Source: an uncultured Alphaproteobacteria bacterium (GTDB lineage Bacteria; Pseudomonadota; Alphaproteobacteria; Rickettsiales; UBA998). From it: a DNA stretch of 64,000 nucleotides. The notes beneath the pieces are model-generated. The model was not told the origin of the DNA. It did not search any database and saw only the letters and a program-made list of their open reading frames with translations. The DNA lies in contig CAWDMW010000002.1 in the NCBI GenBank assembly GCA_963803575.1, positions 886,389-950,388 of the forward strand, written 5' to 3'. This document shows positions 1-11,913 of this stretch, piece after piece (the stretch's first letter is position 1; the number at the start of each line of letters is the position of its first letter). Made by a program: the position numbers and the translations under genes.

Positions 1-301
1 TCTCATAGTTCAATTGAGGAGTTGTATCAGCCTCTTTATGGTCAGGATATAAAATATAAAATAAGACAGCGTGTAGTGCGGTCTCGTTAAGAGAGTCTAG
101 GGGGTATATATCACTGGCTTTTTCAGTTGTCTCATTTGGCTTTAATATCAGGGTGTTCACTTGATCTCTAAGAGCATCTTTTATCGATTTTATTAAATCA
201 TCCCAACTAAGCTCACCACTACTTGGGTTTTTTGTATTCTGATCTAAAACCGTACGAATATCACGCGCATCTACCTTATGAGCATTAAGTACTGTAACCA
301 T
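1..301 (-). CDS. hypothetical protein, N-terminal part only (ORF runs off the left edge)
   Basis: Minus-strand ATG at 299-301. My own translation (MVTVLNAHKVDARDIRTVLDQNTKNPSSGELSWDDLIKSIKDALRDQ...) stays open for 100 codons to base 1. It is absent from the ORF track because no stop lies in the window. It starts 60 nt after the stop of 362..910 on the same strand. Confidence 0.45.
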   Translation of the reverse strand, partial: MVTVLNAHKVDARDIRTVLDQNTKNPSSGELSWDDLIKSIKDALRDQVNTLILKPNETTEKASDIYPLDSLNETALHAVLFYILYPDHKEADTTPQLNYE

Positions 302-361
302 AAAACCCCCACGCTAAATACTGCATAGGAACATATTCACCGAGAAGACAAATCACAAGAT

Positions 362-910
362 TTATAATGTGGGAGCTAATCCATCATTGTCATTTGCTCG
401 CGATGGGTATTCTAATTGATTGCCTGTGTTTAAATCTCTTCTAATTGACTCTTCTAACAATCCATTTAAATGATGTTCTTCAACAACTCTGACAATCTCA
501 CCATCCGTGTTTAATTCATCGACAATTATTGATGCGCCATTTGGGTTATGCTTGATATTTGCCTTATAAAAACCCTGAGCGCTATAATAAACTCCATTCC
601 CTCCACAAGCACCAGTTTCTGTAGTGCGCTCACAAACCGCAGATGGCGCATTCTCACGATCGCGTTTTCCATTTTTGATCCAAAGCGCACCAACAATTGC
701 TTTGGTACCCATATCAAAATATTTTACAGATGGTAAATTGTCTGGGCTATCAACAACGCCATCCTTATTTTTGACTACTTCTTTAAAGCAATCATGAAAC
801 TCGATAAAATTTTCGATACAGTCATCATCGTCTACAGCTTCATAGCTTACTGTATATCCTTTCTTGTTCAGCGCAACTTCATCTGTTTTTGCAGGTGGTA
901 AGATACTCAT
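362..910 (-). CDS. hypothetical protein (182 aa)
   Basis: Longest ORF in the region; only short shadow ORFs overlap it. Acidic N-terminal third and a Gly/Asn-rich middle (WIKNGKRDRENAPSAV, GGNGVYYSAQGFYKANIKHNPNG). No family recognised by eye. Confidence 0.5.
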   Translation of the reverse strand: MSILPPAKTDEVALNKKGYTVSYEAVDDDDCIENFIEFHDCFKEVVKNKDGVVDSPDNLPSVKYFDMGTKAIVGALWIKNGKRDRENAPSAVCERTTETGACGGNGVYYSAQGFYKANIKHNPNGASIIVDELNTDGEIVRVVEEHHLNGLLEESIRRDLNTGNQLEYPSRANDNDGLAPTL

Positions 911-971
911 TCATAGGCTTTCTCTTAATCATATTTACTAGATATTACTATAATACAGCATATTAAGTCAA

Positions 972-994
972 TTTGTCAGAGTTATTCTGACAAA
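972..994. promoter_or_regulatory. perfect 9-bp inverted repeat in a divergent promoter region (candidate operator)
   Basis: tttgtcaga (972-980) / tctgacaaa (986-994) with a 5-nt spacer. It lies between the divergent starts at 910 (-) and 1071 (+). Confidence 0.35.
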
Positions 995-1070
995 AATCCG
1001 ACAAAGCTCCATATCCTATTTGATGAAATATCAGTCATGCTGTTCTCATAACTTAGCGATGAGGATCGAC

Positions 1071-1367
1071 ATGAAAACACTAAATTACTTTAATCAAGAT
1101 TACACCGAAACAGAATTAGCTGCATTAGAAGATCAGCCATTACCGATCGTGAATGATCCCGATTATGACGGCACAGTTTCACCTACGCCCACAGAACCAT
1201 CTGATTCACCGCCACCTGAACCATTGGGGGATAGCGCAGTCGCATTGCCACGTCATGTGGAGCAATGGCTGGATAACGCTTTTGATGATCTGGATGATAT
1301 TGAGCGTTGGCCAGATGATGGCGGATTTGTGCTGACTGAACGCATCCCTAACGAAGTGGAGGGTTAA
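1071..1367 (+). CDS. hypothetical acidic, Pro-rich protein (98 aa)
   Basis: GAGGA at 1061-1065, 5 nt before ATG 1071; the track ORF begins earlier at TTG 1020 with no RBS. The stop is 3 nt before the next start. Very acidic (DDLDDIERWPDD) with a TPTEPSDSPPPEP centre. Confidence 0.5.
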   Translation: MKTLNYFNQDYTETELAALEDQPLPIVNDPDYDGTVSPTPTEPSDSPPPEPLGDSAVALPRHVEQWLDNAFDDLDDIERWPDDGGFVLTERIPNEVEG

Positions 1368-1370
1368 GCG

Positions 1371-2612
1371 ATGAAACTACAAAACAAACAACGTGACGCA
1401 CTAGAGAAAACAACACTTTCTCCAGACGCAATAACATTAACCTCTAACATTGAGTTTGCGGAGGAGCTGAAAGACCTTAAAGCCGCGCATGAGAGACGGC
1501 CTACGAAAGTCTATCTGGTGACGCTAGCCGCAGCCGCACTCTCGGGCTTTATGAGCGCACGGGGCATTATTGAGAAAACCATTGAAGCAGGCGTGATTGA
1601 TGAAGTCTCGATTGGCTCAGCAATTATGTCGGGCGCGGTGTGCTGTGCCTTGCTTACCACCGCCACGATGATGACATTTTCTATTGCGATGGAATCAGCA
1701 CGCAAGCAACGCTGGAAAGTGATTGCTCTGGTGACAACGCTGCTTGTTCCCACCATTGGTGTTAGCAGCTTCTATAGTCTGCTTGGCAATGCAGGAAGCG
1801 CGAGCCTTTCCTATAATATGCAGGATCAGGCGATTGCCCATCGTGAGTATTACGCTGCGTCAATACTGGATGCATCAGAAGCAAAAAGCCGTGCTGACGC
1901 GCTCATTCCGCTGCGTGATGATATTTGCACACGCGCTGATCAGGAGCGTCTCACAGGCCGCTACTCGGGGTCAAAGGGATACGGAAAAGCCGTGCAATCA
2001 ATGGATTCAGTCTGTTCTCAGATAACGTCAATTGTCGAGACGTTACTGAATACGGCATCGAACACCGAAGCACGGGGTAAGCAGGCAACAGAGATTTTAA
2101 ACAAGCTTGCCAGCATTGCCAAAGACCAGTCCATCGGTAATGTGTTTGAGCGTCAGGATGTGTATCGCGAAACGGCTAATCAACTTATGGAGTTGATTCA
2201 GACATTCTTATCCGAGAATGTTGTGGAGCGGCTGAATGTGCAGCTTGCTAATCTGCAAGCCTCTGTTTCTAGCTCTGGCGTACAGAAAAATACCTTTGGT
2301 CAGGTGCAATCAGCCATCATTGAGGATTTGCGCGTTCTTGTCGACAAGGTTGCTGAAAATCTTGAGGGCATGACCGATGTCAGTGATATGCCAAAGGCAA
2401 CGCCACCCGCACCATTAATGGATATGGGTGAAGCGGTGTTTCACTATTCGAGAAAGAACACTCCACAGTATTTGATGGCTTTGTTGCTTGATCTAATGGT
2501 TGTTTTTTATTGTGCGGCATTAACGCTATCTCGCTCGATTCCACAAGCCAGAAAAGAGGAAATGCTGGAATCACAGCCATCCTCTCAATCTTCAATAACT
2601 CAACAATCATAG
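1371..2612 (+). CDS. hypothetical polytopic membrane / coiled-coil protein (413 aa)
   Basis: GGAGGG upstream of the ATG. Three hydrophobic helices in residues ~45-150, a long helical middle, and one C-terminal TM (PQYLMALLLDLMVVFYCAALTL). The topology resembles DUF4407-type proteins, but this is unverified. Confidence 0.6.
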   Translation: MKLQNKQRDALEKTTLSPDAITLTSNIEFAEELKDLKAAHERRPTKVYLVTLAAAALSGFMSARGIIEKTIEAGVIDEVSIGSAIMSGAVCCALLTTATMMTFSIAMESARKQRWKVIALVTTLLVPTIGVSSFYSLLGNAGSASLSYNMQDQAIAHREYYAASILDASEAKSRADALIPLRDDICTRADQERLTGRYSGSKGYGKAVQSMDSVCSQITSIVETLLNTASNTEARGKQATEILNKLASIAKDQSIGNVFERQDVYRETANQLMELIQTFLSENVVERLNVQLANLQASVSSSGVQKNTFGQVQSAIIEDLRVLVDKVAENLEGMTDVSDMPKATPPAPLMDMGEAVFHYSRKNTPQYLMALLLDLMVVFYCAALTLSRSIPQARKEEMLESQPSSQSSITQQS

Positions 2613-2622
2613 GAGAATTATC

Positions 2623-3234
2623 ATGAGAAAATTACTTAATTATACGACGCGTATGGGCTTATCTGGTTTTAGCAATATGTTGCTTGCTGCGCTTGCAAGC
2701 AGCGTCGCTGTCACCTCTATCATATTGCTCAGCCTCTATGTCGTCTCATATGCCAAAGAGTCAGACGCGATGAAAGCACTGCAATGTGCATCAGGTCTGG
2801 TGTCTCGTCCTGATTGCCCAGATCAGCAGGCGGCTATGGATGCTTTGCAGCAAGAGTTGGACGCGTTAGCGGCGCAAAAGGAACAGATGGAGGCTAAGCT
2901 TGGTACGCTCAAGCGTATTAGCGATACGGTGGATTCCGTAACGTTGTTTAAAATGGTAGATATCGACGGAACGGGCATGAAACTGATAGTTGGATCGACG
3001 TATTCAGACTTGTTGAACCCCACTACAAAGCCGGCCTATCACTGCTATATAAGCTTGCGCGGCAATAGTTCGCACGGCAATAATACAGGTATTGAACGTA
3101 ACCTGTATATCCGTAGTGCTGTCGGTGATGTAGATATCACAAAGGACATGCTGCGTGACGCAGACATCACTGAATTTACGGTGCATTTTGCGCGGGCGCA
3201 TTGTAAGCCCTACCTCATTGGCGGCGCTGTATAG
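2623..3234 (+). CDS. hypothetical membrane-anchored coiled-coil protein (203 aa)
   Basis: AGGAG 8 nt upstream. N-terminal TM (MLLAALASSVAVTSIILLSLYVV), a coiled-coil stretch (QQELDALAAQKEQMEAKL), then a globular C-terminus. The stop is 2 nt before the next start. Confidence 0.6.
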   Translation: MRKLLNYTTRMGLSGFSNMLLAALASSVAVTSIILLSLYVVSYAKESDAMKALQCASGLVSRPDCPDQQAAMDALQQELDALAAQKEQMEAKLGTLKRISDTVDSVTLFKMVDIDGTGMKLIVGSTYSDLLNPTTKPAYHCYISLRGNSSHGNNTGIERNLYIRSAVGDVDITKDMLRDADITEFTVHFARAHCKPYLIGGAV

Positions 3235-3236
3235 CC

Positions 3237-5138
3237 ATGCGCAACAATTCCAAACAACATGGTGAGATTATTCGGCGGGGGTTTCCCTTGCCGAATATCT
3301 TGCTGGCAGCTGGTGCTTATGAGGTGATGGGCTGGCTGGGTGGTGACACGCATACTGTCATTCATCACGACACTATCATTATGCATTTGCCAGCCGCCGC
3401 CGCTGTAATCTGCATAGTCAATGTGCTGAGTATATCAGAATGGACGTTCAATCATCTGGCTGAGCGTATTGAGCTAAAACTGGCGCGAACGCCTATTGGC
3501 ATCAAAGGCACGGGGCGCTGGTCAACGCGCAAAGAAGCGTTGCGAATTTCACAGAAATATTATTGGGGGCCATATTTTGGTGCAATCTCTATGGGATGGT
3601 TCCGCCGTAATCGTGAACTGATTATTCCTTACGAATGCATGGCAACGACATTTGGCCCAAGCGGTAGCGGTAAAACAACGAAGGTGCTTCTCACCAATGC
3701 ATTCGCCTTAAAATATGAATCCAAGTTCCTGACAGATTTTAAATCTGACCTGACCTATCAGCTTTATCACCCGCTTTCAAAATACGGCGATGTGATTGTC
3801 CTCGATATTGGCGGTGAGTTTGATGGTCACCCCACCATTAAAACAGCCTACTATAATCCGTTATCATTGCCACTGGATTGTTTTGAACAAGCTGGCTGCC
3901 TTGTTGATGTTAAAGCTATGGTCGCAGAGTTGATTAATCAGCTCTATCCCATAAATGATAAAACACCCGATCCATACTGGCCTAACGGGGCGCGAGAGGC
4001 ATTACAGACGATTGTTATTTACGTTGTGATCCTACGGGATACGCAAGCGCATTTAGGGCATGTCGAGGCAATGCTTAATGACAGCGCGGCATTACTGGCT
4101 GATATGCGGTTTGCCGCAGGGTCATGTGTGAATGCAGAGGGTAACGCATTAGAGCCAATGGCGCTTGAGCAAACCTCGTGGGCATTATCAGGCCTTCATG
4201 ATCCTCAGGACGTAAGTAATTTTATCGCATGGTTTCGCCGTCGCGCTGCGGAGTTAGTAAAAATGCTATCAGCAACAGATACACGCACGATTGATTCATT
4301 CCTCTCAGGCGCACGGCAACAGCTCAGCGACTTTGCGGAAACGGGGCGATTATTCAGGGTCATGAATAAAACGTCGTTTCGGTTCTCACAGATGAAAGAA
4401 GGCGATCGTCCGACAACGGTGCTGATGCCTATTGATAGCACACGATTAGAAACCCAGAAGAAAGCTGCGGCATTATTGCAAAAATGCATGATCATTGAAT
4501 TGCAGCGTCACAAGAACAAACATCGTGAAGTGTATCTTTTACTGGACGAAATTTCTAATTTTCCGCTAACAGGCTTGGATACGCTGCCAACCTATTCACG
4601 CTCTTACGGATTAAGACTGCATCTGTTTCTACAAAACATTTCAGCTTACGCTCACCAGCACGGCGAACATGCGGCGCGTGTCATGGAGTCTGAAAGCGAA
4701 ATTTTCCAGTTTCTATCAGGCATTCGTGAAGAAAAAACGATCAAACTGGCGCAGCGTTTGATGGGTAATCGCTCAATCGTTACCAACAGCAACTCAGGTG
4801 ATCGTAGTGAATATGGCGTGAAAGGCACAGCGTACCGTGAGGATTCTATGCCTCTCATGGACGCAGAACAAATCCGTAGAACGCAACATACGCTGTTATT
4901 TGTGGGGCAGCATTACGGCATCATCAGCCAAGCGCCCACCATCTTCGAAGCACGCCCTTGGGGGCATGAGATAGATGCAAACCCGCATTACGGTACGAAA
5001 AAGAAGATTGATAAAGCCGTTCTTGTGATGGGTGATCGGTTGCCGCCAGTGCAGGTGCAGTGTTATTGGGTCGTCAAGCGTATCATCGCGATGCCATTCA
5101 CCATTCTGCGCTGGTGTCTCACAGGAGGCCGCGTATGA
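3237..5138 (+). CDS. type IV secretion coupling protein, VirD4/TraG family (633 aa)
   Basis: N-terminal TM helices, Walker A (GPSGSGKTTKVLL) and Walker B-like (EVYLLLDEISNF). YGLRLHLFLQNISAYAHQHGE matches the conserved T4CP block (rgyGi..Qs..QL...YG). Family-typical length. Confidence 0.85.
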   Translation: MRNNSKQHGEIIRRGFPLPNILLAAGAYEVMGWLGGDTHTVIHHDTIIMHLPAAAAVICIVNVLSISEWTFNHLAERIELKLARTPIGIKGTGRWSTRKEALRISQKYYWGPYFGAISMGWFRRNRELIIPYECMATTFGPSGSGKTTKVLLTNAFALKYESKFLTDFKSDLTYQLYHPLSKYGDVIVLDIGGEFDGHPTIKTAYYNPLSLPLDCFEQAGCLVDVKAMVAELINQLYPINDKTPDPYWPNGAREALQTIVIYVVILRDTQAHLGHVEAMLNDSAALLADMRFAAGSCVNAEGNALEPMALEQTSWALSGLHDPQDVSNFIAWFRRRAAELVKMLSATDTRTIDSFLSGARQQLSDFAETGRLFRVMNKTSFRFSQMKEGDRPTTVLMPIDSTRLETQKKAAALLQKCMIIELQRHKNKHREVYLLLDEISNFPLTGLDTLPTYSRSYGLRLHLFLQNISAYAHQHGEHAARVMESESEIFQFLSGIREEKTIKLAQRLMGNRSIVTNSNSGDRSEYGVKGTAYREDSMPLMDAEQIRRTQHTLLFVGQHYGIISQAPTIFEARPWGHEIDANPHYGTKKKIDKAVLVMGDRLPPVQVQCYWVVKRIIAMPFTILRWCLTGGRV

Positions 5139-5413
5139 CACCGATACGTTTTCGCTTTCAATATCGATGTGCAACATTCAGCCGCCTGATCAGCCAAATG
5201 ATTGGCTATTGGAAGCCACTCGCTATCGCTGCGTTCTTTGCCTCCAGTACAGGGCCGCACCTGCGTTTGAATGAATTGTACGATCGCCCATCTTACGGGC
5301 AGTGCCTGTATCTGGGATCACGCGGCGTGATTACGCATCAGGGCTTATCAGGGCATGGCTGCCCGTGGGTCGTCATTCTTAATTCTGACCATCAGAGAAA
5401 GTTTTATGAATGA
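5135..5413 (+). CDS. hypothetical small protein (92 aa), translationally coupled to the T4CP
   Basis: ATG 5135 overlaps the T4CP stop as ATGA. Its own stop overlaps the next start (ATGAATGA at 5406-5413). One hydrophobic segment (WKPLAIAAFFASS). The track lists a longer version from 5060. Confidence 0.5.
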   Translation: MTPIRFRFQYRCATFSRLISQMIGYWKPLAIAAFFASSTGPHLRLNELYDRPSYGQCLYLGSRGVITHQGLSGHGCPWVVILNSDHQRKFYE

Positions 5414-6092
5414 TAAAAAATCAGACCTACCCGATATCCGTTATGCGCATCCGTCCCACGCCGAATTCAATGCACGGCTGGCGGCAAAGAATGAGCCAAC
5501 GCCGCGTGACGTAACTGCGCCGTGGAGTCCGTCGCAGAATCTGCCCAACCTCAGACGCGACTTCGCGCAGCTCAACACCTATCTGCAACCTCGCTCGCAT
5601 ATCACAGAGCAAGATAATACAGATCAGCAACGCGGCTCCCGCATGGTCGAGGTCGATCATCTTGCGCCAACATTAGTGCCACCGCCTAATATCCGTGATC
5701 CCGTTGATCGTGAATCATTCGGAAGACGCTGGCTTCTCGAACAACGCGAAGCTGTGTTGGCGCAGGCGGTGATACCGCAGAACCAACAGCAGCGTGTCAA
5801 TACTCATCGGCAGCATAACCAACAATTTAACCACCACTCAGGAGAGTCTTTTATGACAGACCAAACAAGCACTCAAAACTCAAGTTCACCACAACTATCA
5901 CCGACACCAAATGCACCGCTGGAAACCTTCAAAGATGGCGCAGCCGTTATTAAGCTCTGGCAACAGGAAGGGCGCGATGGGCAAATCCACGTCAATGCAT
6001 CCGTCGGGCGCTTGTATAAGGATAATGAAACAGGGCAATGGAAAGAGAGTAAATCATTCAGCCCTCTGATCTTTCTAAGTTGGGCAACATGA
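5406..6092 (+). CDS. hypothetical Gln-rich protein; probably continues into 6080..6409 through a frameshift
   Basis: ATG 5406 overlaps the upstream stop. A possible internal start lies at 5855 (AGGAGA, 7 nt, ATG). It carries the motif REAVLAQA, which recurs as RDAVLAQA in the next ORF. Confidence 0.5.
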   Translation: MNDKKSDLPDIRYAHPSHAEFNARLAAKNEPTPRDVTAPWSPSQNLPNLRRDFAQLNTYLQPRSHITEQDNTDQQRGSRMVEVDHLAPTLVPPPNIRDPVDRESFGRRWLLEQREAVLAQAVIPQNQQQRVNTHRQHNQQFNHHSGESFMTDQTSTQNSSSPQLSPTPNAPLETFKDGAAVIKLWQQEGRDGQIHVNASVGRLYKDNETGQWKESKSFSPLIFLSWAT

Positions 6093-6409
6093 TGCCCAGA
6101 GCTTTGGCTCATGCTAGTGCGTTTGAGCATAACCTTAATGCACAACGTCAGGAACAAATGAAAGCACATGCGCAATCGCAGCAAACGCCTGCACCTGTTC
6201 AAGTCACGCCTGCTCAAGTCGTGCCAACGCTAACACAGCAGCAACAAGCACAACCACTCTCAGCCATGCGCTCGGATCAAATCGTAGCGCAGCAAGATAT
6301 GGTCGCTCAACGTGATGCGGTGCTGGCTCAGGCGCAACCAGCGCAAAGCCCGTCGCAGGAAAACACACAGGAGTATGCACACACCCAAAACCATGAACCA
6401 TCGCGCTAA
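6080..6409 (+). CDS. hypothetical Gln-rich protein, likely the 3' continuation of the preceding ORF
   Basis: It starts only at a TTG inside the previous ORF, with no RBS. Its frame is open from 6053, so it overlaps the end of the previous frame (stop at 6090-6092). Confidence 0.4.
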   Translation: MGNMMPRALAHASAFEHNLNAQRQEQMKAHAQSQQTPAPVQVTPAQVVPTLTQQQQAQPLSAMRSDQIVAQQDMVAQRDAVLAQAQPAQSPSQENTQEYAHTQNHEPSR

Positions 6410-6574
6410 GGAGGAACAGCGCGCTATATTAGTAATTATTCATAAAGTTGAATCACTTACGCGGAGTCATTTCTTGTAATTTAAGCCATTATAGGATAAT
6501 GTTCCTATTATGTTCTTGGGTGGAATAAGACGGAAATGACACCGCCGCACCAAAAAAGAAAGGAGAACATCACC

Positions 6575-6847
6575 ATGACAAAACAACAACCAACTCTTAC
6601 GATGGATATCGCATTATACGAGCATTTTCTTGAAAATAGCCATTATACTGAGGAAGAAAAGCAGGAATATCTGGAAACCATGTGGAACATCATCTGTGAG
6701 TTCGTCACGATGGGCTTCCATGTTCATCCTGTACAGATGGCACTTGATGATAATCAGCCCTCCTGTGGAAAACAGTCACAAACCACTGGAATCCCTATGG
6801 AAGCAGAGTCGCATAGGATAGAATCAACAGTAGAAGAAGGAGCGTAA
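6575..6847 (+). CDS. hypothetical small protein upstream of the recombinase (90 aa)
   Basis: AGGAGA at 6561-6566, 8 nt before ATG 6575. The stop is 3 nt before the recombinase start. No family recognised. Confidence 0.5.
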   Translation: MTKQQPTLTMDIALYEHFLENSHYTEEEKQEYLETMWNIICEFVTMGFHVHPVQMALDDNQPSCGKQSQTTGIPMEAESHRIESTVEEGA

Positions 6848-6850
6848 GCT

Positions 6851-8407
6851 ATGACAGAAGCAACAAAAGTCCTGATATATTGTCGTGTTAGCGATACTAA
6901 GCAGAAAACCGAAGGCCACGGATTAGACAGCCAAGAGCATCGCTGCCGTCAATATGCCGCAACACACGGCTATGAGGTCGAGCAAGTGTTTCCTGACGAT
7001 GCCAGCGGTGGAGGTGATTTCATGAAACGCGCTGGCATGGTTGCTTTGCTACGCTATCTTGATCAAAACCTCCACACCAATTATGTGGTGCTGTTCGATG
7101 ATCTGAAACGCTTTGCGCGTGATCGTGAGTTCCACTTCAAACTAAGACGTGAACTTGCTGCCAGAAGTGCCAACGTGGAATGTCTCAACTTCACATTCGA
7201 CGATACGCCTGAGGGTGAGTTTGTCGAAACCATCTTCGCCGCGCAAGGTCAGCTTGAACGATTGCAAAACCGCCGCCAAGTCATACAGAAAATGAAAGCC
7301 CGTATGGAGTTAGGCTATTATGTGTTTAATGCGCCGATTGGTTACGCTTACGACAAGGTTGCAGGGCATGGTAAATTGCTGGTTCGCGATGAACCGATTG
7401 CTAGTATTCTCCAGCAGGGGTTGGAGGGCTTCGCATCAGGACATTTTCAAACACAAGTCGAAGTGCAGCGTTTTTTCGAATCGAAGCCTGAGTTTCCCAA
7501 GAATAAGCAGGGTCGTGTGCATCCCTCCCGCGTGAAGGAAATTCTGACACATAGCCTGTATTCAGGCCATTTAGAGAAAGAAGAATGGAATTTATCCATG
7601 CGCAAAGGTTATCATGAGGGGCTGATAACATTAGAAACCTTCCAGAAGATACAGCATCGCCTGACGAAACAAGCTAAAGCGCCTGCACGTAAAGACATCA
7701 GCGCGGATTTCCCGCTACGTGGCTTTATCGAATGTGATCATTGTGACAGACCTATGACAGGGTACTGGGCGCAAGGTAAGTATAAGAAGTTTGCCTATTA
7801 TAGCTGCTACGATAAAAGCTGCGAGGGTCGTAAGAAAGCCATTCCACGCGCCAAACTAGAAGGTGAGTTTGAGGAAATGCTCGCAACATTACGACCATCA
7901 GAAGACTTGTTCAATGTCGCCAAAGCAATGTTTAAGGATGCGTGGGATCAGCAATATGCACAGACCGCTTCACTACTCAAAGCCACTAAGCATAAGGTGC
8001 TCGGCATTGAAAAGCAGATGGAGCAATTGCTGGATCGCATTATGGAGTCGTCCAACAGCACGGTTATCGGCAAATACGAGCAACGTATCAGCGAATTGGA
8101 GCACGAGAAACTAATTTGGGCAGAGAAAATGACCTCTCAGCCGCAAAAACACGGCACCTTCGAGGAAATGTTCGAACTCTCCATGAATTTTCTGCTTAAC
8201 CCGCAGAAACTATGGCAGTCCAGCCGTATTGAGCATAAGCGTGCAGTGCTAAAACTAGCCTTCGAAGACCGTATTCCATATCACCGTGACAAAGGACTTC
8301 GAACTCCAAAAACCACCATACCTTTCAGTATGTTAGCAGGTATTTGTGGAAATAATGTAGAAATGGTGGGCGATGAGAGACTCGAACTCCCGACATCCTC
8401 GGTGTAA
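6851..8407 (+). CDS. large serine recombinase (518 aa)
   Basis: Resolvase catalytic N-terminus (VLIYCRVSDTKQ ... FDDLKRFARD), a recombinase domain, a Cys cluster (CDHCDRPMTGYW...YYSCYDKSCEGR) and a coiled-coil tail. The last 14 codons are antisense tRNA-Val sequence. Confidence 0.85.
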   Translation: MTEATKVLIYCRVSDTKQKTEGHGLDSQEHRCRQYAATHGYEVEQVFPDDASGGGDFMKRAGMVALLRYLDQNLHTNYVVLFDDLKRFARDREFHFKLRRELAARSANVECLNFTFDDTPEGEFVETIFAAQGQLERLQNRRQVIQKMKARMELGYYVFNAPIGYAYDKVAGHGKLLVRDEPIASILQQGLEGFASGHFQTQVEVQRFFESKPEFPKNKQGRVHPSRVKEILTHSLYSGHLEKEEWNLSMRKGYHEGLITLETFQKIQHRLTKQAKAPARKDISADFPLRGFIECDHCDRPMTGYWAQGKYKKFAYYSCYDKSCEGRKKAIPRAKLEGEFEEMLATLRPSEDLFNVAKAMFKDAWDQQYAQTASLLKATKHKVLGIEKQMEQLLDRIMESSNSTVIGKYEQRISELEHEKLIWAEKMTSQPQKHGTFEEMFELSMNFLLNPQKLWQSSRIEHKRAVLKLAFEDRIPYHRDKGLRTPKTTIPFSMLAGICGNNVEMVGDERLELPTSSV

Positions 8408-8439
8408 ACGAGGCGCTCTACCAACTGAGCTAATCGCCC
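8364..8439 (-). tRNA. tRNA-Val (anticodon UAC), CCA encoded
   Basis: The reverse complement folds by hand as GGGCGAT-TA-GCTC-AGTTGGTA-GAGC-G-CCTCG-TTTACAC-CGAGG-ATGTC-GGGAG-TTCGAGT-CTCTC-ATCGCCC-A-CCA. That is 76 nt with a canonical cloverleaf and TAC in the anticodon loop. Confidence 0.9.
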
Positions 8440-10242: not shown

Positions 10243-11913
10243 TTACAATCCTCCAATAGCACGTTGCATGTCCTGCAAACGTCCATCTGGTTGCATGTGT
10301 GTCAGCATGGTTGTGTCTGGTGCTACGTCCTGCGTCACTGTTGCGCCAAGAGCGCCACGTTTCAGATGGTGCTGCGTTTCTGCAATGCGCCCTGATGTGA
10401 TTTCTTCCATTAAGGCCGCTGGCGTAAGCTGTTGTTCAACGTAGTGGTCAGCCAACTTCATCACATCCGGATGCTCAGGCCCTACTTTGTTGAGTGCTGG
10501 TGAACCCATTACTAACAGCAAAGACGCCATATCACCTGTCAGGCGACCACCGTTGCTTTTGTAGGCTTCACGCACGTCATGGTACGTATCCATAAGCGGA
10601 TCATGGGGCATAACACGATCCAGCAATTGTCCGGCAATCATCGGAGCCGCCATGACCATCATCATACCTCCACCCATCGCACTACGATCAGAATAATTAT
10701 TCGCCATCGTTACCGCTATAGCATCACTGACTAATGACATAGCCGCAGCGGGTGCCATCTTTCCAAGCATACCGTCACGGGCACGTATCACCGCTTCGGG
10801 TGCGTTTTTATCAAACATGGCATCAAACATGCCTGCCTGATCGTTACCTGTCATATCCTGATACAGATCGGTGATTTGTTCCATTTTATGGGCAAACTTG
10901 CTGATCGTGCGAATATCACGAATGGCGGCACCTGCATAAAGCGAGCCTTTATACGCCGTTTCGTAGATATTGTGGCTATCCATAACGTTATGCAGCTTGT
11001 CTGGTGCATTGGCAATAGATTCGCCCATCTGATCGCGTCCAAGACGGTTGCTCACAAAATCTCCGGCCTTATCAGCTAATCCTTTGATGCCATCACCAAA
11101 CTTTTCACCGAGTGATGACTCTGTACCGCTCAATGACTCGCCTGCATTATCCAAACCATCCACAATCTTTTGACGTAGTCCGGGAGCTGAATCAGTGGCA
11201 GCGGTTTGAATAAACTCTTTAGCTTCTTGTGACTGATGTAAGTTTTCTAACGTAAGCATACCGCCAGACGCATCTTTTACCACTTCGCTAGCAGACGCGA
11301 GAGATGCTGTTCTTGCTTCCTGCGCTGCTTCCCGAAATTCTGCTCGGGCTTCCTGCAAACGGGTACTATCCGTACGTAGAATGGTAGAAACCTGCTCTTT
11401 CACATGATTTAATGCTTGTGAAGGCAAATGATGCATATCTGACACGTTAGATGCACGAAAAGCGTTAAACGGTGCCATCAAACTTTTGGAAGCAACACCT
11501 AAGCCGTTGCTGATGCCCTGACCTGTGCTGGCCATCTTATCACCAGCATTTTGTAATATCTCTAAATTAGTAAAGCCACCAATGCCACCAACAACCGACC
11601 CACTAACATTTCCAATGCCGCTAATCAGTCCGCCAAACATTTTCGTGACTAATCCGGCAATCATTGGCATTCCGGCAATACGCATGGGGGTACCAACAAA
11701 CGATTGCACACCAGATAAAGCGCCACCTGTTTGTGCCAAAGTCTGGCTTGCACGTGCAACATTGCCTGCTCCGGCAACCGCAGTATTCGCGACCATTGCG
11801 CCCCCTACATTTGCACCTTGCAAGCCAGACATAGCTGTCTTGGCTGCCTGCATCTCTGCTTGAGGATTGGCTGCTAAGGTGTTTAGTACAGTTTGTGCGC
11901 CTGGAGGAGGCAA
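10243..11913 (-). CDS. hypothetical protein (555 aa) with Gly-rich N-terminal and internal Met/Gly-rich hydrophobic segments
   Basis: TTG start at 11911-11913, with GGAG 6 nt upstream. Residues ~31-114 are Gly/Ala/Val-rich (MRIAGMPMIAGLVTKMFGGLISGIGNVSGSVVGGIGGF). Residues ~384-431 read MAPAAAMSLVSDAIAVTMANN..GGGMMMVMAAPMIAGQLL. The middle is helical and charged. Confidence 0.7.
   Translation of the reverse strand: MPPPGAQTVLNTLAANPQAEMQAAKTAMSGLQGANVGGAMVANTAVAGAGNVARASQTLAQTGGALSGVQSFVGTPMRIAGMPMIAGLVTKMFGGLISGIGNVSGSVVGGIGGFTNLEILQNAGDKMASTGQGISNGLGVASKSLMAPFNAFRASNVSDMHHLPSQALNHVKEQVSTILRTDSTRLQEARAEFREAAQEARTASLASASEVVKDASGGMLTLENLHQSQEAKEFIQTAATDSAPGLRQKIVDGLDNAGESLSGTESSLGEKFGDGIKGLADKAGDFVSNRLGRDQMGESIANAPDKLHNVMDSHNIYETAYKGSLYAGAAIRDIRTISKFAHKMEQITDLYQDMTGNDQAGMFDAMFDKNAPEAVIRARDGMLGKMAPAAAMSLVSDAIAVTMANNYSDRSAMGGGMMMVMAAPMIAGQLLDRVMPHDPLMDTYHDVREAYKSNGGRLTGDMASLLLVMGSPALNKVGPEHPDVMKLADHYVEQQLTPAALMEEITSGRIAETQHHLKRGALGATVTQDVAPDTTMLTHMQPDGRLQDMQRAIGGL

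Follow-up and report, generated by a model that had tools for sequence, protein, structure and literature searches.

A large serine recombinase gene ends inside tRNA-Val(UAC)

The DNA analyzed here (the window, 64,000 nt) comprises positions 886389-950388 of contig C2 in the genome (G000) of an uncultured alphaproteobacterium, and its first 8,439 positions hold one end of a genomic island inserted at the gene for tRNA-Val(UAC). The host genome measures 2.3 Mb in two contigs, with 46% guanine plus cytosine (GC) and 33 tRNA genes, among which tRNA-Val(UAC) is the single gene for its anticodon (ARAGORN). With sequence fetched from left of the window (L001 and L004, each in its own numbering), the island was found to span C2:870914-894757 (23.8 kb) between ispB and the tRNA gene; window positions 1-8439 form its right-hand third, the remaining 15.5 kb lie to the left, and the left window edge cuts the island within a gene of 622 amino acids (aa) that continues past it. 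We conclude with good confidence that the island is an integrative mobilizable element (IME) placed at tRNA-Val by a large serine recombinase (LSR), its mobility being predicted. As an IME it is well delimited and of a known general type, whereas its integration module is unusual and scarcely documented. From left to right it carries a NikA/MobC-type accessory gene, a Ti-TraA-like relaxase-helicase, ParDE, ArdA, low-GC cargo, the operon of a type IV coupling protein (T4CP), an acidic protein and the LSR. The features at its two ends are as follows:

Window 8364-8439, minus strand: tRNA-Val(UAC) (anticodon TAC), called by ARAGORN, intact, the sole tRNA in the window
Window 6851..8407, plus strand: LSR, 518 aa in its integrated-state frame; Pfam PF00239 (Resolvase), PF07508 (Recombinase), PF13408 (Zn_ribbon_recom)
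Window 8364..8369: TGGTGG crossover core (attR), complement of the CCACCA 3' end of the tRNA
L001:3387-4418, minus strand: ispB, the core gene on the left
L001:4526-4531 (C2:870914-870919): left TGGTGG core, 107 nt from the ispB start
L001:4641-5112: NikA/MobC-type ribbon-helix-helix accessory gene (PF21983), frameshifted
L001:5109-7871: relaxase-helicase, 920 aa, MobA/VirD2-like nuclease (PF03432) plus AAA_30/RecD-like helicase

The recombinase has the composition of its class, namely a resolvase catalytic domain with its serine (the N-terminal motif RVSDTKQ was confirmed in the translation), a recombinase domain and a zinc ribbon. Solved structures are matched by the catalytic domain alone (TP901-1 at 3e-08), and the AlphaFold model of a homologue, P0096, shows long paired helices beyond the zinc ribbon at residues 353-432. 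Among the island open reading frames (ORFs) scanned, neither a Phage_integrase domain nor a second resolvase-domain ORF was found. The initial annotation had described a mobile island driven by an LSR with this motif, not by a tyrosine integrase, and lying directly at tRNA-Val; our analysis bears this out, except that the gene overlaps the tRNA by 44 nt rather than merely abutting it. These last 44 nt (8364-8407) are antisense to tRNA-Val and run through its CCA end, acceptor strand and T arm, and the last 12 residues of the LSR, beyond the core codons, are antisense tRNA sequence. Because the integrase gene crosses its own attachment site, the coding sequence of its native C-terminal tail would lie at the opposite island end, at a distance of 24 kb.

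Two ways in which the mobile-island reading might have failed, a degenerate recombinase or a set of conserved core genes next to tRNA-Val, found no support. All domains of the recombinase are present, and its homologues are scattered patchily over the genomes of relatives (12 of 30 genomes, 0-4 copies each). Furthermore, the ispB neighborhoods of four family-level relatives contain no tRNA within 20 kb and share no synteny with either flank; they show no conserved arrangement and are uninformative as to an empty site.

Joining the island ends extends the integrase frame to the accessory gene

TGGTGG is the sole sequence common to both island ends, and the exact 2-bp crossover is not placeable from the sequence. 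A direct repeat of the tRNA-Val 3' segment had been expected to define the far end; instead, exact and short-word BLAST searches returned no repeat of this segment longer than 6 bp anywhere in the genome, chance matches aside, and it is TGGTGG that marks that end. Likewise, no second copy of any tRNA-Val segment of at least 12 nt lies near the island, whereas Islander-type tyrosine-integrase islands have a displaced tRNA 3' segment of about 15-50 bp at the far end. With the integrase class recognized, a long att repeat was no longer taken as a criterion. LSRs need just a short crossover core, and the missing long repeat is therefore no refutation of mobility; a short core with no long direct repeat is what the ends display.

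When the two ends were joined in silico, the integrase frame remained open for 37 further codons, to a TGA stop that overlaps the ATG of the accessory gene (ATGA). The conserved integrase tail encoded by these codons starts exactly at the left TGGTGG and is homologous to the tails of sister elements, a homology apparent only once the cores had been located (tblastn with the 37-aa tail peptide alone gave nothing at E<1e-3).

The arm on the element side (L001:4532-4560) carries a CTGAAC-type motif at a spacing similar to that of the T-arm CTCGAAC on the tRNA side (window 8370-8395). The T-arm-like motif on this arm lies some 22-29 nt from the core; the three sister islands have the same arrangement, and it may be a shared recognition motif that lets one integrase read both partners.

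Sister islands in the same genome carry the same tail

Ten further matches to the integrase were found in the host genome. Full-length copies, 37-50% identical to the integrase at tRNA-Val, adjoin four other tRNA genes, and fragments adjoin and read into two more, such that 7 of the 33 tRNA genes bear an integrase gene or a remnant at their 3' end. The six copies besides that at tRNA-Val are:

C2:598840-600345: full-length, at tRNA-Tyr
C2:798511-800049: full-length, at tRNA-Leu(TAA)
C2:1124017-1125555: full-length, at tRNA-Ala(GGC)
C2:1557541-1559049: full-length, at tRNA-Ser(GCT)
C1:307522-308244: fragment, at tRNA-Ala(TGC)
C1:385445-385624: fragment, at tRNA-Phe

Three of these copies (at tRNA-Leu, tRNA-Tyr and tRNA-Ser) belong to sister islands of 29-30 kb whose backbone follows the same order as in the Val island, and the four complete islands together take up some 112 kb, close to 5% of the genome. 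The relaxases of the Val, Leu and Ser islands are 75% identical to one another and the integrases 43-50%, which fits a shared transfer module that would have been combined with integrases of differing target specificity. The far-end cores of the sister islands, short copies of the last tRNA bases, measure 7 bp (Tyr) and 11 bp (Ser), and the Leu island has a 15-bp match at a junction that retains an integrase 3' fragment. In all four islands the integrase frame runs from the core into a tail of 39-42 residues with a common F..L..W helix motif, and in the Val, Leu and Ser islands the TGA of the tail overlaps the ATG of the accessory gene. Pairwise codon comparison of the tails showed the lowest conservation at third positions (0.32-0.43, compared with 0.57-0.73 for second positions), and conserved residues are often encoded by different codons; this third-position variability argues for coding constraint, the mark of translated sequence.

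A further junction in the genome already has the joined form. At the left border of the tRNA-Leu island (C2:770547-771027), the tail continues the frame of an integrase 3' fragment (residues ~385-509) without interruption, and accessory and relaxase genes follow. This attP-like chromosomal junction is perhaps what remains of a tandem or accreted element.

A seventh paralogue of the integrase (C2:1233741-1235234, 37% identical) has no adjoining tRNA, although its end carries TGGTGCCCCC, like the acceptor end of tRNA-Leu. The ORF downstream of it lacks obvious mobilization features, and this copy may belong to another type of element.

Core and tail across the integrase family

Relatives of the integrase number more than 3500 at E<1e-20. 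We took the best 120 of these as close homologues and counted the 118 with a PFKVL-type motif. In 117 of the 118, the core codons (Met/Leu then Val/Ala; xTGGTG or xTGGCG) lie ten residues past the last residue of the motif. Beyond that point, 100 run on into antisense T-arm sequence, 14 end within 6 residues and one, P0096, encoded on a metagenome contig, keeps the helix tail in frame. Named genomes supplied 48 loci, and at 32 of them the 3' end of an antisense tRNA falls within 40 nt of the integrase end. The target tRNAs cover nine specificities (Thr, Met, Ser, Leu, Ala, Phe, Arg, Tyr and Val), and the hosts of tRNA-adjoining loci include Rhodobacterales, Hyphomicrobiales, Pseudomonadales and metagenome-assembled genomes (MAGs) of Candidatus Endobugula, Saccharibacteria and Vampirovibrionales; further loci from Patescibacteria hold the integrase with no adjacent tRNA.

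Far ends were fetched for three external islands, those of Loktanella, Devosia and Pseudahrensia. In Loktanella and Devosia (both at tRNA-Ser), cores of 7 and 16 bp lie just 5' of the relaxase operon, and joining the ends puts the tail in frame with the same motif; the Pseudahrensia island (tRNA-Thr) has a 10-bp core. In addition, two chromosomal loci from long-read MAGs (L027 and L034, positions 11440-11640 in each) have the attP form, with integrase, accessory gene and relaxase contiguous and TGGTG at the expected place. Plasmid-borne forms were also sought and then set aside, the family being nearly absent from plasmids (one partial match among 72,556).

Transfer genes and the secretion channel

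The coupling protein that would link the element to a secretion channel lies within the window:

Window 3237..5138, plus strand: T4CP, VirD4/TraG-like and divergent (Pfam PF02534 8e-15, PF12696 1e-13, PF10412 6e-07)

Its three Pfam families are T4SS-DNA_transf, TraG-D_C and TrwB_AAD_bind; the NCBIfam match to the VirD4-like CD1115 family falls below the cut-off, and identity to the syntenic T4CPs of the sister islands is 23-29%. The ten ORFs of window positions 1-8407 were searched with Pfam, NCBIfam and PHROGs, and no relaxase, VirB/Trb, type IV secretion system (T4SS) or replication domain was found in them. Both of these results agree with the initial annotation, which had reported a VirD4/TraG coupling protein and none of those genes in the visible 8.4 kb. 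From this it had gone on to two options, a large integrative and conjugative element (ICE) continuing to the left or a compact mobilizable element supplying only its own coupling protein, and had suggested a search for relaxase and T4SS genes left of the window. The second option fails at the far left end of the island, 15 kb left of the window, where the relaxase and the accessory gene lie. The relaxase is about 30% identical to Ti-type TraA proteins, its best annotated matches. As for the first, the island does continue to the left, but for 15.5 kb only and with no T4SS genes, so it is no large ICE; the suggested search thus returned the relaxase and no T4SS domain among the island ORFs scanned.

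The island therefore reads as an IME and not an ICE, there being no VirB4 or other mating-pore gene in it. It has its own recombinase with a core at both ends, a relaxase, an accessory gene and a T4CP, and it lacks both a complete mating-pore set and a T4SS of its own with a VirB4-type ATPase. Mating-pore genes might instead be hidden among the dozen or so island ORFs that have no family assignment, in which case the island would be a self-transmissible ICE. We regard this as highly improbable: no VirB4, TraC or AAA_10 ATPase occurs in the island; the only island ORFs longer than 443 aa are the relaxase (920 aa), the T4CP (633 aa), an AAA_16 cargo protein (622 aa) and a NERD-like cargo protein (567 aa); cargo takes up about 10 kb of the 23.8 kb, and the rest is too short to hold a channel as well; and the sister islands have the same small backbone.

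A channel for an IME would have to come from elsewhere, and a whole-genome family search placed VirB4 matches at two sites, both on contig C1 (C1:282000-301000 and C1:368000-387000), amid housekeeping genes and beside four VirB6 paralogues. VirB9 (two copies), VirB10 and a canonical VirD4 lie on C2 near 1.31 and 1.43 Mb (1308729 and 1429493-1434131), and neither F-type TraC (TraC_F) nor any other AAA_10 ATPase was found genome-wide. This scattered, duplicated chromosomal VirB-type set, the only T4SS found in the genome, resembles the Rickettsiales vir homologue (rvh-like) system, and those ThiC relatives that bear names are labeled as MAGs of Rickettsiales or Alphaproteobacteria. Gene-transfer-agent tail genes (GTA_TIM, Rcc01698_C) adjoin one of the VirB4 copies.

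A possible integration-state switch

We tentatively propose that the tail and the operon junction form an integration-state switch, with transfer turned on only after excision, and that these islands, in a Rickettsiales-like host with a small genome and at a fifth of its tRNA genes, may use the chromosomal rvh-like VirB system instead of a conjugative element. In our main reading, that of the island as an IME, the 3' coding end of the integrase gene would contain attP, which the integrase would recombine with an attB site made of the tRNA CCACCA end and the DNA downstream of it. Integration would leave the tRNA intact, exchange the native integrase tail for 12 antisense-tRNA residues and cut off the accessory and relaxase genes from that of the integrase, whereas after excision the integrase would be full-length again and translationally coupled with the accessory gene and the relaxase in one unit. 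Nicking of the circle by the relaxase would follow, and the island T4CP would deliver the DNA to a T4SS channel supplied in trans, for which the scattered chromosomal VirB-type system would be the sole candidate in the genome.

Several observations weigh against the main reading. A 6-bp core is expected about 0.1 times per 500 bp by chance, and it gains weight through the place where it lies and through the sister elements. The helix tail of P0096 (residues 520-535) was modeled by AlphaFold with a predicted local distance difference test (pLDDT) below 50 and with no docking, so no role of the tail is readable from the structure. Exact scans of metagenomes with the host-side arm plus core and with the element-side arm plus core gave 0 matches each, and no empty site or circular junction came to light, the nearest genomes being family-level relatives. 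The tail motif of the Pseudahrensia island is weak, and in L027 and L034 an offset of one base near the core puts integrase body and tail in different frames, which could reflect assembly indels or genuine inactivation. That the island uses the chromosomal T4SS is something we purely infer. Finally, the accessory gene of the Val island is split into ORFs of 88 and 87 aa by a single additional base within an A7 run (L001:4878-4884), which could be decay, slippage or an assembly or sequencing error, and with this gene frameshifted the present copy is perhaps not transfer-proficient.

The last of these points would be expected of a fixed relic that no longer excises or transfers and persists as a carrier of cargo, toxin-antitoxin and anti-restriction genes, an explanation that we hold to be unlikely without being far-fetched. 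In the Leu and Ser islands the accessory gene is a single ORF of about 150 aa; moreover, the integrase of the tRNA-Tyr island has an internal stop codon, the remnants at tRNA-Ala(TGC) and tRNA-Phe indicate that decay occurs in this genome, ParDE could stabilize an immobile island, and the GC content of the island (42.8%) is near that of the genome. Such a relic sits less easily with an integrase, a relaxase and a T4CP that are all full-length open frames with complete domains, or with an intact tail and ATGA overlap, and a single-base difference in a homopolymer may be an assembly error.

The frame offset in L027 and L034 speaks for another explanation, in which the integrase simply ends near the core and the conserved stretch at the left end is a micro-ORF or leader coupled to the accessory gene, or is conserved as DNA only (the P' arm of attP). 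DNA-level constraint is plausible where the first tail codons overlap the T-arm-like motif, and the core codon ATG or TTG could start a 39-aa peptide; for DsiB, an LSR of Dehalococcoides islands, McMurdie et al. could neither define the stop codon of dsiB nor settle whether its att-overlapping end functions (PMC3146451). We nevertheless think this explanation improbable, as the frame is continuous in the four elements here, in two of the three external elements, in P0096 and in the fragment at C2:770547-771027, as conservation reaches 60-110 nt past the core, beyond the usual attP arm, and as the third-position pattern is typical of coding sequence.

An integration-state switch of the proposed kind would have parallels. 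Transfer-gene expression of Tn916 depends on circularization, and attP lies inside the tyrosine integrase gene in Mx8 (intP) and SSV1 (int). As in these cases, excision here would rejoin an integrase gene or operon, such that expression or the form of the protein follows the integration state. Those systems differ in that their enzymes are tyrosine recombinases and the elements a conjugative transposon, a phage and an archaeal virus; ours is a prediction from sequence.

Comparison with known systems

Serine-recombinase IMEs have been described as Firmicutes elements inserted inside protein-coding genes, tRNA 3' ends being assigned to tyrosine integrases (review, 2017, PMC5704250), and in a large survey tyrosine integrases were much the most common kind at tRNA genes (PMC10484663). 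A Mesorhizobium survey mentions five serine-recombinase IMEs, with their sites not described (PMC8627217). The present island resembles known IMEs (PMC5704250, PMC8627217) in having its own integration module, a relaxase with a ribbon-helix-helix accessory protein, its own T4CP and no mating pore, and in a cargo of defence, toxin-antitoxin and anti-restriction genes. It departs from those of the 2017 review in that its serine integrase targets tRNA CCA ends in an alphaproteobacterium. Its relaxase, like TraA of the Ti plasmid, joins a MobA/VirD2-like nuclease to a RecD-like helicase, and the Ti system likewise has a TraG-type T4CP, together with a P-type T4SS; the identity is only about 30%, and our element is integrated rather than carried on a plasmid.

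Within the limited coverage of the literature searched, no description of an LSR family that targets tRNA CCA ends was found, and the nearest case was DsiB at ssrA in Dehalococcoides. The dsiB gene always overlaps att, and its authors suggested that it may be fully functional on the circle only (McMurdie et al. 2011, PMC3146451). The two systems share an LSR at the 3' end of a tRNA-like gene, a gene that overlaps att and a stop codon outside the island. In the DsiB islands the direct repeat is 20 bp long and the insertion point is the T loop of ssrA; the present family has a core of 6-16 bp, placed at the CCA end. DsiB also has a partner, the small co-transcribed serine recombinase DsiA, whereas the ORFs scanned in the Val island included a single one with a resolvase domain, and with its 6-bp core the island is not a DsiAB-type module. 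In addition, relaxase and T4CP are absent from the DsiB islands and present here, and the description of DsiB mentions neither a conserved tail nor a coupling to transfer genes.

Reviews and island-finding tools give such sites to tyrosine integrases and mark the far end by a displaced tRNA fragment. Both rules are broken by this clade of LSRs, which acts at the CCA end of many tRNAs and whose relatives, above 3500 in number, occur in Alphaproteobacteria, Gammaproteobacteria and candidate-phyla bacteria. Because only 6-16 shared bases are left, repeat-based tools will miss such islands or misplace their borders, and automatic annotation records chimeric integrase C-termini made of antisense tRNA. 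With attP inside the gene, integration would alter the integrase and uncouple the transfer genes, a design that could serve as a simple switch of directionality and transfer timing. Serine integrases whose natural targets are tRNAs, present in every cell, could be useful in genome engineering. Four complete islands and several remnants form a guild in this small genome, in which the only T4SS found is chromosomal; for symbiont biology, such islands in about 5% of a 2.3-Mb genome raise the question of how DNA moves between such bacteria.

Further backbone and cargo genes

The remaining genes of the island within the window are as follows:

2..301, minus strand: 5' end of a 622-aa P-loop (AAA_16-like) cargo gene, entire at L004:8433-10301; no counterpart in the three sister islands
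362..910, minus strand: 182-aa ORF, function unassigned, island-specific cargo; no match in Pfam, NCBIfam, PHROGs or PADLOC, absent from the sister islands
1371..2612, plus strand: 413-aa backbone protein that opens the T4CP operon; 31% identity to syntenic genes of the tRNA-Leu and tRNA-Ser islands, no family match
2623..3234, plus strand: 203-aa backbone protein; identity to the syntenic gene 52% (tRNA-Ser island) and 30% (tRNA-Leu island), no family match
5060..5413, plus strand: small conserved ORF between the T4CP and the 245-aa gene; 40% identity over about 100 aa in two sister islands, no Pfam match; its real start is probably after 5138
5355..6092, plus strand: 245-aa protein, the best conserved of the backbone; identity 81% (tRNA-Ser island) and 67% (tRNA-Leu island)
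6080..6409, plus strand: 109-aa backbone protein; 49-56% identity in two sister islands
6536..6847, plus strand: 103-aa acidic protein immediately 5' of the integrase gene; no match in Pfam, NCBIfam or PHROGs

Homologues of the 103-aa acidic protein sit immediately upstream of the integrase in 22 loci fetched from other genomes. The protein is at most a candidate directionality factor or regulator; ESM Atlas returned unnamed clusters alone for it (score 0.86). On the functions of the backbone proteins, Pfam, NCBIfam, PHROGs, PADLOC and, for the 103-aa protein, ESM Atlas gave nothing usable, and a look-up of cluster membership found no cluster mates for host and island proteins.

The 245-aa backbone protein also adjoins the T4CP in two further loci (L039 and L043). 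Between the Val and Ser islands this protein is 81% identical, whereas the neighboring T4CPs are just 28% identical; from this difference the islands appear to be mosaics that exchange modules.

In the left part of the island, matches to ParD and ParE lie to the right of the relaxase, followed by two unassigned ORFs and then by ArdA. Beyond these is the cargo block:

L004:1056-7540: low-GC cargo block (33-39% GC) with a protein resembling DUF4365 and Argonaute-associated restriction endonucleases, four unknown proteins and a NERD/PD-(D/E)XK-like protein

As a whole this block fits no PADLOC system, and it is possibly a defence system. Outside the island, left of ispB, the thiC ORF (L001:75-1517) encodes 480 aa, compared with about 630 aa in relatives, and looks truncated or frameshifted; its Pfam match covers only positions 2-291 of the 420 in the radical-SAM model.

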